From IMG/VR virus record IMGVR_UViG_2698536387_000003: a stretch of 9,195 nt of DNA, one strand, 5' to 3'. The position numbers were made by a program, and so were the translations under genes. Source of the DNA: a virus (lineage: Duplodnaviria; Heunggongvirae; Uroviricota; Caudoviricetes). How positions within the stretch are numbered: position 1 is the first letter of the stretch; each line of letters begins with the position of its first letter. Below are positions 2,896 to 8,673 of the stretch, in pieces. The notes beneath the pieces were generated by a model. That model saw nothing but the letters and a program-made list of their open reading frames with translations, was not told where the DNA came from and searched no databases.

Positions 2896-3243
2896 TTACG
2901 GCAGCGCCGCGTGACTCAGGGCACTGCCGGCAAAGGCATTTGCCTTTTTGTGTTCATCCACACTTTCAGGCCAGCGGATTGCCTCCGTCGCAAAGGTCCC
3001 CGACTTGTAATAGGTCAGTACCGTCTCTGTGCCTTCAAGCGGCAGTACCAGTATGCCAACTGCACTACCGGCTTTCTGTCCGTCCCAGACCACCAGTTTC
3101 CCGGTAGCTTCATCCAGCATCAGGGGCGTCAGTGCCGGTGTTGCCGAGGAAATCCCGCTGCTGCCTGTGGCGGTATGAGCCGGATCATTACCGGCAAAAA
3201 TACGTACTTCCGCACGCTGTTCAGTGATGTTTTTCGTTACCAT
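2896..3243 (-). CDS. D: Head decoration protein, lambda gpD homolog
   Basis: 115-aa ORF contains DPAHTAT, TPLMLD, KLVVWDG, AVGIL, YKSGTF and AFAG in the same order as recalled lambda gpD (110 aa). An AGGAGG Shine-Dalgarno lies about 10 nt upstream of the ATG at 3243. Confidence 0.92.
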   Translation of the reverse strand: MVTKNITEQRAEVRIFAGNDPAHTATGSSGISSATPALTPLMLDEATGKLVVWDGQKAGSAVGILVLPLEGTETVLTYYKSGTFATEAIRWPESVDEHKKANAFAGSALSHAALP

Positions 3244-3279: not shown

Positions 3280-3882
3280 TCATGGCATGGCCATGAGCAT
3301 TTTCACGTCCGCATCACCGTCTGCTGACGTCTGTGGCACGCCACCCTGTACCGCAGCCGGTGAATGGTTCGCCATGATGCGTTCAAACAGGGCGGTTGTG
3401 GATGCAGAGACCGGTTCTGCCTTACCTGATCCCGCAGCCAGCACAGCCCGGGCGCTCTCCACAGTCATTCCCGGGCAGGCAGCCAGCTGTTCAGCCTGCG
3501 CCTCAGCCCCTTTTGCCTCATCCAGTGCCATGATCTGATCACGGAGTGAGGGTCCGGCATCCGCCTGCGGTGAAGCAGCCAGGATCGGGCGGGCTTTTTC
3601 CACCGTCATCTCCGGCATCGCCGCCAGCGTTGCCGCCAGTTGTTCACGACCGTTCGCTTCTTCACACGCCATAATGCGATCGGCTTCACTCTGCGTGGAT
3701 GCCACCGGCTGCTGCGGTGCCGCCGCAGCCAGAATCGCCCGGGCCTGTTCAACGCTCATGCCCTGTTGTCCTGCCAGCATCGTGGCAAGCTGTTCACGTC
3801 CTTTCGCTTCCTGGCATGTCAGGATCCCCATCACTCGCTGGTTCTCCTGCGCGGCGGCTTCCGTTGCAGTTAATTGCGGCAT
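3280..3882 (-). CDS. Nu3: Capsid scaffolding protein, lambda gpNu3 homolog; nested in frame within the 3' part of C
   Basis: The in-frame internal ATG at 3882..3880 is preceded by a strong GAGGAGG Shine-Dalgarno inside the C coding sequence. The resulting 200-aa product (MPQLTATEAAAQENQRVMGILTCQEAKGREQ...) parallels the lambda arrangement, where Nu3 is the in-frame C-terminal part of C and contains a RIMGILNCEEAHGRE-type motif. Confidence 0.7.
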   Translation of the reverse strand: MPQLTATEAAAQENQRVMGILTCQEAKGREQLATMLAGQQGMSVEQARAILAAAAPQQPVASTQSEADRIMACEEANGREQLAATLAAMPEMTVEKARPILAASPQADAGPSLRDQIMALDEAKGAEAQAEQLAACPGMTVESARAVLAAGSGKAEPVSASTTALFERIMANHSPAAVQGGVPQTSADGDADVKMLMAMP

Positions 3883-4785
3883 AGTGCCTCCTCTGACATT
3901 ACTGTTCAGCGCCGTGGCCATCACACTGATGGCATCCGACGCATTGACTAATTCATCCGCCAGCCCGGCATCAATGCCGGACTGACCTTCAAAAACGGCG
4001 GCCTCTGTTCCCGTGACGGCATCAACAGACAGACCGGTAAACATCGCCACTTTTTCGGCAAACATCCGGCGCGCCGCATCAATGCGCTGCTGCATGTCCT
4101 GGCGAACCTCTGCCGGTAAGGCTTCAAACTGATTGCCATCCACCTTGTGCGCCCCTGAGTAAATCAGCGTGATATCCACACCGGCCTGCGCCAGATGACC
4201 GGCATAGCTGACATGGCTCATCATCACGCCAATGGAGCCGATACGGGATGTCTGGGTAACCAGCCGTCGGGAGCAGGCCGACGCCAGCAGCATGGCTGCA
4301 GAACAGGCCGTGTCATTGCACAGTGCCCAGACCGGCTTCTGCTGACGGAGGCGGTAAATCATGTCAGCGCAGTCAAACGCGCCGGCGGCCTGCCCGCCCG
4401 GACTGTCAATGTCCAGCAGTACGCCCCGCACCTGGCTATCCGCCATTGCCTGCTGAAGACAGGCGACAATGCCGTCATAGCCTGTCATTCCGGAAAATGG
4501 CCGCATACCCCCCAGCCGGTGCACCAGCGTGCCGGTCACCGGCAGTACAGCAATACCGTTCACCACCCGGTAAACACGGGCCGGTCGTTTACCTCCGGCC
4601 ATGTACTCGTCCGTTTCAGCCAGCATTCCGGGAGCATCAAGCTGTACCTGCTGCTGTGGTACCGAAAGACTTGCTGCCCCCATCTCGCGCCCGAGCGCGC
4701 AAAAGAAAACCCGCGCATAGGCGGGCTCCAGAAGCAGCGGTTCATTGAATGCTGCGGCAATAATGTGTGAAAGATTACGTCTCAC
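3280..4785 (-). CDS. C: Prohead protease / minor capsid protein, lambda gpC homolog (S49 SppA-like serine peptidase) with a C-terminal scaffold region
   Basis: 501-aa ORF. The N-terminus (RNLSHIIAAAFNEPLLLEPAYARVFFCAL) matches recalled lambda gpC (RNLPHIASMAFNEPLMLEPAYARVFFCAL). It carries the S49-type DSPGG motif and a conserved serine context (CNDTACSAAMLLASA versus lambda ANDMNCSAGQLLASAA). The product is longer than the 439 aa I recall for lambda gpC because of repeat expansion in the C-terminal part. Confidence 0.9.
   Translation of the reverse strand: MRRNLSHIIAAAFNEPLLLEPAYARVFFCALGREMGAASLSVPQQQVQLDAPGMLAETDEYMAGGKRPARVYRVVNGIAVLPVTGTLVHRLGGMRPFSGMTGYDGIVACLQQAMADSQVRGVLLDIDSPGGQAAGAFDCADMIYRLRQQKPVWALCNDTACSAAMLLASACSRRLVTQTSRIGSIGVMMSHVSYAGHLAQAGVDITLIYSGAHKVDGNQFEALPAEVRQDMQQRIDAARRMFAEKVAMFTGLSVDAVTGTEAAVFEGQSGIDAGLADELVNASDAISVMATALNSNVRGGTMPQLTATEAAAQENQRVMGILTCQEAKGREQLATMLAGQQGMSVEQARAILAAAAPQQPVASTQSEADRIMACEEANGREQLAATLAAMPEMTVEKARPILAASPQADAGPSLRDQIMALDEAKGAEAQAEQLAACPGMTVESARAVLAAGSGKAEPVSASTTALFERIMANHSPAAVQGGVPQTSADGDADVKMLMAMP
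3349..3837 (-). repeat. Diverged in-frame tandem repeats (period about 140-160 nt, 3 full copies plus one partial) encoding the scaffold motif R-[VI]-M-x-[IL]-x-x-[EQ]-E-A-x-G-R-E-Q-L-A...G-M-[ST]-V-E-x-A-R-x-[IV]-L-A-A
   Basis: Protein copies: RVMGILTCQEAKGREQLATMLAGQQGMSVEQARAILAAAAPQQ, RIMACEEANGREQLAATLAAMPEMTVEKARPILAASPQ, QIMALDEAKGAEAQAEQLAACPGMTVESARAVLAAGSG, and a partial ERIMANHSPAA. The repetition is also visible at nucleotide level (recurring gccataat/gccatgat, tgttcacg and ccagaatcgcccgggc segments). Confidence 0.75.
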
Positions 4786-6367
4786 GGGGTGTTGTCTCCT
4801 CTTCCGGCCTGCGACTCTCCGCTATCTGCTGCTGATACGCCTGCGCTATCCACACCGGACGTGAGAGTCCGGCTTTTTGCCGCTCTGCAGATTCCCTGAC
4901 CTGCTGGCGGAAAATGTCCTGATAATCCTCGCCCATCAGCGCCAGCTCTTTCTCATACGTGCTCAGTCCGGCCTCAATGCGCATCACCGATTCCTGAACC
5001 TCCTTGAGCCCGTCAATGGCCATTCTTCCGGCTCCAATCCACTCTGCCCGTGACCAGGCTGATCGCGCCTGATAAAAATCAAAACGTGCCCGTGGCGGAC
5101 GAATAATCCCCCGAAGAAGTGCCTCTTCCAGCCAGCAGGAAAACATCTGCGTGGCCAGCCGGGCCGCAATAAATTTTCGCCGCCCCATAAAATAGCGCCA
5201 CGACTCATTGGCGGAGGCGCGGGCACTTGAGTAACTGACCTTCGAGTAATCACGGGACAACTGTTCGTAGGAAACGCCAAGACCGGCGGCGATATACCGC
5301 AGCAACGCCTGTTCAAGCGCAGAAAATCCATTGTCTGAATCCTGCGCAGTCTGTAGTTTCAGATCATCACCAGGGAAAAGGTGCGGAATTTTGACACCGC
5401 CCAGTGTCACGTTATTCGTGTCATACCAGCTGGAGAACTTCTCCAGAATATTAATAAGCGGATTATCTTTCTGCTCCTGTGGCGCGCCGGCGATATATTC
5501 AAAGGCCTTTTCGGTATCAAGTTCACTTTCAATCGTCGCTGCATACATCGCCTTCACTATGGCCGACTGAAGCTGTGTTGCCTGCAGGGAATCGAGCATC
5601 TTCAGCCGTTCCATGACGCTGTAAAACTGGTTGGCCCCACGGGTCTGCCCGTCCTCCACCGGCTCGAAAATATGCAGCATGGCCGGACGCCCGGTGGGAA
5701 GTTCACGCGGGATCCGTTCCCATCGTCCACTCCCGGAGAACGGAAAATCATCCTCACAGATATGGTACGCAACGGCACGGCCATATCGATCGACCTCCAC
5801 CCCGGCCCGCAGAAAACGGTTCCCCATACCGTGTCCTGGCGTGTCCACCCGTTTCGGACTCACGGCTTTAAAACGCGTACGGAATAACTGCGTGGTTTCC
5901 GTATCCCAGACCGGCTGCACAAAGATTTCGCCGTTAAACGCATGAACGCCCACACCTTCACGGATAAATTCCGTGAACGTGCGTTTTCCTTCCACGTCGA
6001 TCTCGCCAGACATCCCTTCGGCGTATTCCGACCAGGCCGCCTCCACCTCATCGACAAAGCTTTTTGCTGCGGTCTCCCGCATCCCCAGCCAGCGCCAGTT
6101 CGGACGGTAGCTGATCAGAAACATATGCCCGACAATGTGATCCTTATGCAGAGCCACCGCATTAGCCGCTATTCCGTTATTGCGCACCAGATCATCTGCC
6201 CGGGCATTCCCCAGACGCAACGCGGGCAGCAGGGCCGCATCGGCACTCTGCGCCGGTGGCAACCACTCAGCCATTTGCCCGCCAAATCCTGCACCGCCCC
6301 CGTTGTAGCTGAGACTCTCACGAAGCGGAACGCCGTTCACATCAATCAGGACAGGCGTTCGTTTCAT
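4775..6367 (-). CDS. B: Portal protein, lambda gpB homolog
   Basis: 530-aa ORF aligns throughout with recalled lambda gpB, for example GNARADDLVRNNG, FEPVEDGQTRGAN, QLQSAIVKAMYAATIESELDT, LRYIAAGLGVSYEQLSR, ARASANESW, GRMAIDGLKEVQE and EAGLSTYEKE. Its ATG overlaps the W stop (ATGA at 6364..6367). Confidence 0.95.
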   Translation of the reverse strand: MKRTPVLIDVNGVPLRESLSYNGGGAGFGGQMAEWLPPAQSADAALLPALRLGNARADDLVRNNGIAANAVALHKDHIVGHMFLISYRPNWRWLGMRETAAKSFVDEVEAAWSEYAEGMSGEIDVEGKRTFTEFIREGVGVHAFNGEIFVQPVWDTETTQLFRTRFKAVSPKRVDTPGHGMGNRFLRAGVEVDRYGRAVAYHICEDDFPFSGSGRWERIPRELPTGRPAMLHIFEPVEDGQTRGANQFYSVMERLKMLDSLQATQLQSAIVKAMYAATIESELDTEKAFEYIAGAPQEQKDNPLINILEKFSSWYDTNNVTLGGVKIPHLFPGDDLKLQTAQDSDNGFSALEQALLRYIAAGLGVSYEQLSRDYSKVSYSSARASANESWRYFMGRRKFIAARLATQMFSCWLEEALLRGIIRPPRARFDFYQARSAWSRAEWIGAGRMAIDGLKEVQESVMRIEAGLSTYEKELALMGEDYQDIFRQQVRESAERQKAGLSRPVWIAQAYQQQIAESRRPEEETTPRET

Positions 6368-6570: not shown

Positions 6571-8303
6571 TCACTCCTCCGGACAGCTTCGCTGCCAGTT
6601 CTTTCAGGGTTGGCCGGGTCGTCTCTTCTTCCCGGGATTTTGCCAGTACAGCCAGATCAAGCTGCCAGCGTTGCACGGACACACGTAATGCCGCGTAGGC
6701 ATACACCAGGCAGTCCAGCGCTTCGTTACGCCGCTTTTTGTTATCCCACAGCAGACGCATCTTTCCTTTTTCCCACTTCTCCACCAGCTCTTCCGCCACC
6801 AGTTGCTGCGCCTCTGTCTGCGAAAAAATCTCCGGATCATCAGGAAAACGGATGGCATACGACGTGGCTTCATCCGCAGGCGTGGGATCGGCTTTCATAC
6901 GGGCATAGAGAATTTCTTTTGCGGTGTCCGTTCCCACTTCACACAGATACACGCCCCGCTGATTGCGGGTTTTCGGCATGGTGATCACCGGCTTGCCATA
7001 GACAGACGCGCCTTTTACCGGCAGCACCCGGAAAACACCGTGTTTTTTTGATCTCTGATAAACAATTTCACCATCGATCCCCCCGGTGTCCCAGCAGACA
7101 CGGGAAATAGTCATTTCGGTGCCATCCGCATGGCGGTATTTTTTGTTGATCGCCGCATCCACACGTAACAGCGTCTCTTCCTCATCGGGACGCCCCATAA
7201 TGATGATTTTATCCACCAGAAAGGCTTCCTCTCCCGGTGCCCATCCCCAGACATACATCTCAAAACGGTTTCGCTGCGAGTCAATGCCCGCCGTCAGATA
7301 AACCACCCGGGCAGGCACCGCCGCCGTGTAACGCACCACCTTATCCATCAGTACCTGGTGATCGAGTTTTTCGCCCACGGCCTCTTCCCAGGTCTCGCCC
7401 AGCGTGGTGTTCACAAAGGTTTTCAGGCCGTTGGGATCTTTCAGTGCATCCAGCCAGTCATAGACAATCTGTACCCAGGTGGTGAACGGACTGTACGCCG
7501 TCCAGATATGGAACATGATGGAGCGCGGCGGCGGAATTTCATCACCCCGGGCGCTGAAAAACGTCAGACCGTCACGGGTCCACATGCCCGTGTTTTCACA
7601 GATCCACCGCCCGTTGCTCTGGTCCAGTTCAGACTGATGGATCACGCAGCCATGATGTTCACAGAGGTAGAAAACACTTTCAGGGCTGTCCTTCTCCCAT
7701 TTAAGCCCAAAAGGCGTGGACTCATCGCCAAATTTCAGATACTGCGCCTCCCCACAGTGCGGGCAGGGCACATAAAAACGCATAAAATGCGCCGACTCGT
7801 TAGCGGCTTTTTCGATCTGGCAGGTGCCTTTGATTTTAGGCGTCGAGCCGCGAATGGATTTTGGCCACACCGACCCCTCAATACGCTTATCCCCCAGCAG
7901 GGTTGGCGAGCCCTCTTTTTCGACATCCGGCTCGAACGAGGAAAGTTCGTCATAGCAGACCACGTCAACGGATTTTTCACGGTAGTTTTTGGCGGCAGCG
8001 CCGCCCAGGCACCAGAAACCGACGCCCGATGAAAAGCGTTTCAGCGTGAGAGTATTGTCACGATGTTTACGACCCAGCCATGGGGAAAGGTCTTTCAGGC
8101 ATGGCACGTTCCGAATCGTCGCCTCCACGTGAGACTTCATAAAATCTTCAGCGGCAGAATCCGTGGGCTGAAAAAGCAGACTGTTTCGGGATTTATGCTC
8201 AATAAAATACCCGACCACCCCCAGCAACATCTTTGTATAGCCAACACGGGCAGATTTAATCAGNNNNCATCATATTATTCAGTTGTTGCTCTGATATATT
8301 CAT
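6554..8303 (-). CDS. A: Terminase large subunit, lambda gpA homolog; interrupted by a 4-N run at 8264..8267 with about 60 codons apparently missing
   Basis: The 558-aa ORF (6554..8230) aligns with lambda gpA from its internal KMLLGVYAYFIEHK to the C-terminus (CPHCGE, FVNTTLGETWE, LTAGIDSQ, WDTGGID, GTDTAKE, KKRRNEALDC). Upstream of the N-run the same strand encodes LIKSARVGYTK, matching lambda VVKSARVGYSK. Beyond the N-run an ATG at 8303..8301 encodes MNISEQQLNNMM, matching the lambda gpA N-terminus MNISNSQVNRL. The two flanks are in different frames if the gap is exactly 4 nt. Confidence 0.9.
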
Positions 8304-8673
8304 CAAGTAAATCCGGTAATTTATCCCCTGCCCGCGCACACTGATTTGCCCCCTTAGCAATAAGGGTTTTCAGATGGTCAAGATGGCGCGGTGTTAAATC
8401 AGGAAACTGTCGCTGCATGGATAAAGGGATGGAATCAAGCGTACTGGATAACGCCATTGCCAGCTTACTGAGGGCAAAAATACAGAACCCGGTGTCAATN
8501 NNNNNCACATCGTTTTTACTTCTCCTCAGATACGATATGTAAAAATCGCGCCAGGCATCCAGATCCAGTTGCCCTCGCTTATTCGATATCGGGGCACCCG
8601 GCAATTTCTGCAATCTGCGAAGCTGGCGATCGGTCAGACTTAAATGCCTGGCAACTTCAGTCTGCGTAGCCAC
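8275..8673 (-). CDS. Nu1: Terminase small subunit, lambda gpNu1-like; GTG start; interrupted by a 6-N run at 8500..8505; N-terminal DNA-binding domain differs from lambda
   Basis: The C-terminal 74 aa (IDTGFCIFALSKLAMALSSTLDSIPLSMQRQFPDLTPRHLDHLK...LPDLLDEYI) match the lambda Nu1 C-terminus (VETAFCTFVLSRIAGEIASILDGLPLSVQRRFPELENRHVDFLK...IPGLLSEYI). The N-terminal 56 aa (MATQTEVARHLSLTDRQLRRLQKLPGAPISNKRGQ...) have an HTH-like pattern in the same position as lambda's but a different sequence. The start codon is GTG at 8673..8671 with a GAGGTGAGGA Shine-Dalgarno region immediately upstream. The product is about 50 aa shorter than the 181 aa I recall for lambda Nu1, consistent with missing sequence at the N-run. 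Confidence 0.82.
   Translation of the reverse strand: MATQTEVARHLSLTDRQLRRLQKLPGAPISNKRGQLDLDAWRDFYISYLRRSKNDVXXIDTGFCIFALSKLAMALSSTLDSIPLSMQRQFPDLTPRHLDHLKTLIAKGANQCARAGDKLPDLLDEYIRATTE

Follow-up and report, generated by a model that had tools for sequence, protein, structure and literature searches.

The 3' part of the head maturation protease gene described here, which also encodes the scaffold, contains three tandem in-frame copies of a motif that occurs once in phage lambda. The gene represents the phage 21 type of the nested pair C/Nu3 known from lambda. The triplication is already known, GenBank having carried an annotation of it from the early 1990s (1993) on. In M81255.1 ('Bacteriophage 21 head gene operon'), gene 6 carries three repeat_region features, Tri1 box, Tri box and Tri3 box. 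The box is the most conserved element of lambda-type scaffolds. The GenBank note on each Tri box reads 'function unknown; putative'. We take M81255 to be the record of Smith & Feiss (Gene 1993). Thus the box expansion reported in the preliminary description of this DNA is real, but it is not new. Indeed, since the Tri boxes have long been annotated and the gene is present in about a third of complete Escherichia coli genomes, the triplication as such is ordinary. The new findings are descriptive and concern the age of the three boxes and the conservation of their positions, the extent of the family of single-box proteins, the modular fold predicted for the boxes, and the natural deletion alleles.

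The head operon and the nested gene pair

The minus strand of the window (the whole analysed stretch of 9,195 nucleotides) encodes a lambdoid head operon, as seen from the ORF list and Pfam. A gene for a 501-aa protein, with a GTG start overlapping the 3' end of the portal gene, lies between this lambda-type portal gene and the genes for D/E-type decoration and major capsid proteins (Table 1). The remaining ORFs are analogues of FI, FII, Z and U downstream, and of W and terminase upstream; these assignments are based on the gene order and on the Pfam families recorded for their counterparts in related loci. The listed terminase ORF begins at an internal Met and has 558 aa, compared to 642 aa in related loci. 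Runs of N at 8264-8267 and 8500-8505, in the region of the terminase large subunit N-terminus and Nu1, produce X residues in two ORF translations.

Table 1. Features of the head operon and of the nested protease and scaffold genes. Positions are those of the window; amino acids are numbered along the 501-aa protein.
Feature	Positions	Strand	Basis or remark
Portal gene	4775-6367	minus	Phage_portal_2, PF05136
Head maturation protease/scaffold fusion gene (phage 21 gp5, lambda C analogue)	3280-4785	minus	501 aa, ORF list
S49 (SppA-like) serine peptidase domain, aa 146-293	3907-4350	minus	Pfam PF01343, Peptidase_S49, E 7e-35
Shine-Dalgarno box GAGGAGG, 4 nt 5' of the nested ATG	3887-3893	minus	sequence
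Nested in-frame scaffold gene, 200 aa (phage 21 gp6, lambda Nu3 analogue)	3280-3882	minus	ATG 3882-3880
Box R1 (Tri1), ENQRVMGILTCQEAKGREQLATMLAGQQGMSVEQARAILAAAAPQ, aa 314-358	3712-3846	minus	GenBank Tri1 box = 3712-3815
Box R2 (Tri), EADRIMACEEANGREQLAATLAAMPEMTVEKARPILAASP, aa 367-406	3568-3687	minus	GenBank Tri box = 3565-3675
Box R3 (Tri3), LRDQIMALDEAKGAEAQAEQLAACPGMTVESARAVLAAGS, aa 414-453	3427-3546	minus	GenBank Tri3 box = 3421-3534
Tail helix motif TTALFERIMANH, initially described as a partial fourth copy	3364-3399	minus	counterpart of lambda TALDRLM
Decoration protein gene	2896-3243	minus	HDPD, PF02924
Major capsid protein gene	1810-2838	minus	Phage_cap_E, PF03864

In addition to the Pfam match to the S49 family, residues 77-290 of the 501-aa protein match the SppA structures 3rst/4kwb from PDB (E about 5e-16). 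Together with the nested in-frame start and its GAGGAGG box, the S49 domain bears out the initial identification of the gene as an analogue of lambda C/Nu3. An equivalent nested CDS ('gene 6' or 'scaffolding protein') with a ribosome binding site is annotated in both M81255 and OL657228. Judging by these signals, a 200-aa scaffold identical to the protease's C-terminal portion is likely to be made from the nested start. The candidate scaffold matches the PHROG families phrog_8940 (capsid assembly protein, E 2.7e-31) and phrog_8399 (head scaffolding protein, E 8.5e-36), with three matching stretches in each case.

Over its whole length the 501-aa gene is 98.7% identical at the nucleotide level to genes 5/6 of phage 21 (M81255.1, OL657228.1), and the same level is seen in about a dozen other phage-collection records. 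The window protein differs from phage 21 gp5 in 9 of 501 residues and has 54% amino acid identity to lambda C. The window is a prophage copy. In the public assembly collection, 2442 indexed blocks contain exactly this 501-aa protein. E. coli O157:H7 strain 493/89 is 100% identical to the window over the segment 3280-3900 (621 bases), and 1870 of the 5426 complete E. coli genomes contain a match to this segment.

Three boxes in the scaffold

The box HMM identifies three boxes in the window protein (75-80 bits each) and one in lambda C (aa 357-399); the window box nearest to the single box of lambda is R1. Local alignments between boxes score 85-101, compared to means of 24-26 for shuffled sequences (z = 12-17, with none of 2000 shuffles scoring as high). 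The ungapped self dot-plot of the 200-aa product contains diagonals at +50, +47 and +97 aa with scores 89, 78 and 77, whereas the maximum among shuffled sequences is 49 (mean 30, sd 5). The self dot-plot of lambda Nu3 contains no diagonal, its best score being 27 against a shuffle mean of 26.8. The preliminary description listed three tandem in-frame copies of the motif, against one in lambda, and proposed a self dot-plot as a check. The HMM and the alignments agree with this count, the off-diagonal signal is present in the 200-aa product, and lambda has a single copy and no diagonal. The three boxes occupy the M81255 coordinates of the three Tri boxes of phage 21 gene 6.

At the DNA level the repeat signal is weak. 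The identity at offsets of 150, 141 and 291 nt is 0.44, 0.38 and 0.41, respectively, compared to 0.30 +/- 0.03 at in-frame offsets; the enriched offsets of 150 and 141 nt agree with the initially suggested period of about 140-160 nt. The nucleotide identity among the boxes is 59-66%. A DNA repeat search of the box region produced only seeds of 12-22 nt, and Tandem Repeats Finder reported no array in this region, since the box copies are too diverged.

The last box, R3, is followed by a tail of 48 aa, in which a partial fourth copy had been proposed. This copy amounts merely to ERIMA, and its alignment to the boxes is at the chance level (z about 0 or below). Proteins with one box and proteins with three both have a motif of the TALDRLM type after their last box; at this position phage 21 reads AMFEHFMANH, and the window has ALFERIM. 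Since the tail motif is common to the one-box protein, it is not a product of box expansion. Thus the fourth copy has to be dropped: the ERIMA match is at chance and the lambda tail has a counterpart. For the 200-aa product AlphaFold predicts a low-confidence tail helix spanning approximately residues 160-172.

Age and conservation of the boxes

The boxes are 67-83% identical to each other in codon positions 1 and 2, but only 36-44% identical in position 3, where the changes are near saturation. This pattern is that of old copies maintained at the protein level. Moreover, R1, R2 and R3 are each more similar to the box at the same position in P0136, P0138 (505 aa, with an S49 domain) and P0139, which are three-box proteins representing other 50%-identity clusters, than to the other boxes of the window protein. 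For instance, the alignment scores of R1 are 144-163 with other R1 boxes, but 83-100 with R2 and R3 of the window. Such same-position orthology indicates that the triplication predates the divergence of these lineages and that each position has been kept. The conservation of each of the three positions suggests that multivalency matters. On the other hand, the two boxes of the relative P0155 are each other's closest match, which indicates an independent duplication.

Conservation is also seen at short distances. Among 115 close E. coli alleles, polymorphic columns constitute 28-45% of the boxes, 35% of the protease core, 57-75% of the linkers and 60% of the tail. Thus the conservation of the boxes is similar to that of the protease core, and the linkers and the tail vary more.

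The box family

The consensus of the family, RxRIxGILxCxEAKGRExLAxxLAxxPGMTVExAKxILAAAP, covers about 40 residues, of which I7, E12, A13, G15, R16, A20, L23, A24, A34 and L38 are near-invariant. In R3 the near-invariant GRE is replaced by GAE, whereas the arginine is present in 139 of 146 boxes and is retained in R3 of the divergent three-box relatives. Thus the third box of the E. coli and phage 21 lineage is slightly degenerate at the most conserved motif.

The search of 1.84 billion representative proteins with the three-box profile identified 414 clusters (E <= 0.001). Among the best 150 of these, 133 have one box, 12 have two and five have three, the multi-box members being mostly phage 21-type fragments. 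In the long members inspected, the box is situated about 80-100 aa from the C-terminus. Ten long members were scanned for protease domains. Nine contain S49, and the tenth, P0240 (375 aa), contains a ClpP-type protease (PF00574) with the box C-terminal to it. The co-occurrence with two protease families means that the box is a portable module, separate from any one protease fold. No model matching the box was found in Pfam and NCBIfam, and a word-indexed protein search with the three-box profile returned just 15 short fragments.

Several family members are unusual fusions. In P0080 (721 aa) and P0084 (577 aa) the reading frame runs past box 3 (...VLAAGSG) into unrelated sequence, which in P0084 is rich in Gly, His, Thr and Ala; these proteins are taken to be candidate prophage deletions that fused head and tail genes. 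P0195 (844 aa) and P0170 (504 aa) are in-frame fusions of lambda C with further sequence that is apparently of phage origin; in P0170 the foreign part ends just upstream of mid-C. Both are probably either deletion derivatives or lambda sequences that entered public assemblies from vectors.

Predicted structure

In the AlphaFold2 model of the 200-aa product, built from a 13-sequence alignment, each box contains three short helices, separated by a conserved KGR turn and a PGM loop. In this model pLDDT reaches 75-84 in the boxes, but stays under 60 in the linkers and under 50 over most of the tail. The single-sequence model has the same helix-loop-helix units in each box. The mean pLDDT of the models is moderate (64-68), and pTM of both is 0.27-0.30; with pTM of 0.27, no fixed arrangement between boxes is predicted. 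Thus each box is predicted to fold alone as a small helical unit, with short flexible linkers stringing the units together like beads.

The helices are amphipathic and rich in Ala and Leu, and the net charges of R1, R2 and R3 are 0, -3 and -3, respectively. Comparison of the box profile with PDB sequences yielded nothing relevant at E <= 10, and Foldseek comparison of the model with PDB and BFVD yielded no match at E <= 0.001. Lambda gpNu3 is reportedly intrinsically disordered, going by the title of Medina et al. 2011, and in that case the predicted box helices may form only on binding.

Variation in box number among prophages

The box number varies: there are deletion alleles with 2 or 2.5 boxes, and expansions are rare or doubtful. 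Indeed, length differences among close relatives map to the box array. The allele frequencies given below are rough, being based on contig and block counts. In the 451-aa allele, an in-register crossover between R1 and R2 at GAAGCGAA leaves two boxes; it is represented by about 20 sequence clusters, one of them from E. albertii. In the 452-aa allele (one contig), R1 is joined directly to the linker preceding R3, again leaving two boxes. The 482-aa allele has a 57-nt deletion within R2, between CTGGCGGC and CTGGCTGC, and has lost the loop and the last helix of this box; it is very common, the exact protein being indexed in 3592 blocks. The 472-aa allele lacks the N-terminal half of R2 and is found in 53 contigs, named Shigella flexneri. 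Given that the 482-aa allele lacks half of the second box, either a head can be built with fewer than three intact boxes, or the heads of these prophages are defective.

Two longer forms were observed. The 551-aa allele contains a 150-nt duplication creating a fourth box, a hybrid of R3 and R2. Both records of this allele, LS992828.1 and UNQM01000006.1, contain N at gene positions 1323 and 1473 (5323/5473 in L004, 2323/2473 in L011). This expansion is doubtful and may be an assembly artefact, as the Ns are exactly one duplication unit apart and the accessions, GCA_900537015.1 and GCA_900536945.1, are adjacent. The 657-aa allele, from a complete E. coli genome (CP007136.1; L005 4001-5974), contains an in-frame tandem duplication of 468 nt that begins where the protease domain ends and extends to the middle of box 3, with GGCTG-type microhomology at the join. 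The duplicated part is 99.1% identical to the window gene, so the event looks either recent or an assembly error.

The junctions of the variants coincide with microhomologies of 5-8 nt (GAAGCGAA, CTGGC(G/T)GC, ATGAC). The copy number probably shifts by unequal or illegitimate recombination at such short microhomologies between boxes, which would generate the 2-box and 2.5-box alleles. In the loci of the 451-, 482-, 551- and 657-aa alleles the neighbouring head genes are unchanged in order and sizes. All 19 full-coverage phage-collection records with the gene span the full three-box length, and short forms are seen in bacterial genome and metagenome assemblies only. Thus the suggestion that the array is a site of recombinational length variation is right insofar as its length varies, but the array is not a hot spot of near-identical repeats, the copies being old and diverged.

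Possible role of the boxes

For lambda Nu3, interactions with E, C, B and with itself have been reported (PMC3224144), and the P22 scaffold binds the coat N-arm via a C-terminal helix-turn-helix (PMC9965877). By analogy with these interactions and with the P22 anchoring, the boxes are rather likely to be scaffold contact modules on the inner capsid shell, forming a multivalent scaffold and tethering the protease. Their target would be the inner face of the shell built of the major capsid protein gp7 (the E analogue), and the boxes may also bind each other. The trivalent scaffold would then nucleate or cross-link capsid subunits. In the full-length product, the boxes would bring the protease into the prohead, where it would afterwards degrade the scaffold. 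The N-arm region of the E analogue, for which its first 45 residues were taken, has a net charge of +2. Since the boxes are neutral to acidic, any electrostatic contact would be opposite in polarity to that in P22.

An effect of the box number on the stoichiometry or spacing of capsid contacts, which was suggested initially, is plausible. It is possible, though doubtful, that the valency of the scaffold is determined by how many boxes it has, and with it the number of scaffold molecules needed per prohead and the protease loading. If so, lambda (one box), the 451- and 452-aa alleles (two), the 482- and 472-aa alleles (2.5), phage 21 (three), and perhaps forms with more would constitute a natural allelic series for testing the control of capsid assembly by valency.

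Another explanation, which is unlikely, is that the boxes are modules of scaffold self-association rather than capsid binding, three of them allowing for a network or a higher-order core. Nu3-Nu3 and Nu3-C interactions of lambda, with dimers in the yeast two-hybrid assay (PMC3224144), and the amphipathic Ala/Leu-rich helices of the boxes are consistent with it. However, the same study reported the Nu3-E interaction (PMC3224144), and the AlphaFold models, with pTM of 0.27-0.30, contain no box-box packing, although a monomer model is blind to intermolecular packing. Self-association and shell binding are compatible with each other.

Somewhat less likely again, the extra boxes could be redundant, one being sufficient as in lambda, so that the expansion would be near-neutral and would mainly add length. 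Most family members indeed have a single box, R3 lacks the near-invariant Arg of GRE, and the 2-box and 2.5-box alleles are common in prophages whose neighbouring head genes retain their order and size. On the other hand, all three positions are kept as orthologous boxes across different 50%-identity clusters, amino acids are retained while third codon positions are near saturation, the conservation of the boxes equals that of the protease core, and the three-box length is spanned by 19 of the 19 full-coverage phage-collection records.

Binding of the boxes to the portal (gp4, the B analogue), to build a portal-protease-scaffold initiator instead of touching the shell, is highly improbable: although lambda requires Nu3 to incorporate B and has C-B and Nu3-B among its listed interactions (PMC3224144), the box is also paired with a different protease family. 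Finally, the idea that the periodicity reflects a DNA-level element, such as the 'CII binding sites' of OL657228, and not a protein repeat, is effectively refuted: matches to TTGYN6TTGY do occur at 3630-3643 and 3864-3877 (plus strand), the places where this complete genome record of phage 21 has the sites annotated, but the window contains three matches with 1.66 expected and 45 of 200 shuffles reach three, so that they are attributed to chance, while the two sites are not equivalent in the boxes, one being inside R2 and the other upstream of R1, and conservation is in codon positions 1 and 2, not 3.

The literature search found no paper on the structure of the shell-bound lambda scaffold. 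The prophage alleles with fewer boxes could be used for testing scaffold valency.

Comparison with known systems

The working analogy for the box is the P22 scaffold gp8 (PDB 2GP8), which likewise has a small helical hairpin-like unit near its C-terminus. The P22 unit is single, basic and located at the extreme C-terminus, whereas the window protein has three units, neutral to acidic, followed by the 48-aa tail. No sequence or fold relation between the box and 2GP8 was detected, although the fold comparison is a weak test, the model being a multi-unit chain of moderate confidence. Basic coat-binding residues of the P22 type are absent from the boxes (net charges 0, -3 and -3). Further, there is no protease in P22, whereas the scaffold of the window is nested in a protease gene.

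In the P2 gpO-type fusion (Chang et al. 2009), an N-terminal serine protease and a C-terminal scaffolding or capsid-binding region are said to reside in one polypeptide. It is set apart from the gene described here by a protease family other than S49, and is not known to contain the box motif.

Genes 5/6 of phage 21 have the same nested start and ribosome binding site as the window gene, and three boxes at the same positions. The differences amount to a few substitutions, e.g. AMFEHFM in the phage 21 tail versus ALFERIM in the window.

The lambda C/Nu3 pair (NP_040584/NP_040585) likewise consists of an S49 protease and an in-frame nested scaffold at the same position of the head operon, and has the box and tail motifs in common with the window gene. 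However, lambda has one box, preceded by a low-complexity insertion of about 36 aa, whereas the window has three. The start of lambda Nu3 lies 63 codons further upstream, in the protease region (codon 239 versus codon 302 in the window). Nevertheless, the scaffolds are of nearly equal length, 201 aa in lambda Nu3 (L003 833-1438) and 200 aa in the window: in lambda this length is filled by the C-terminal segment of the protease and the low-complexity linker, and in phage 21 by the two extra boxes.
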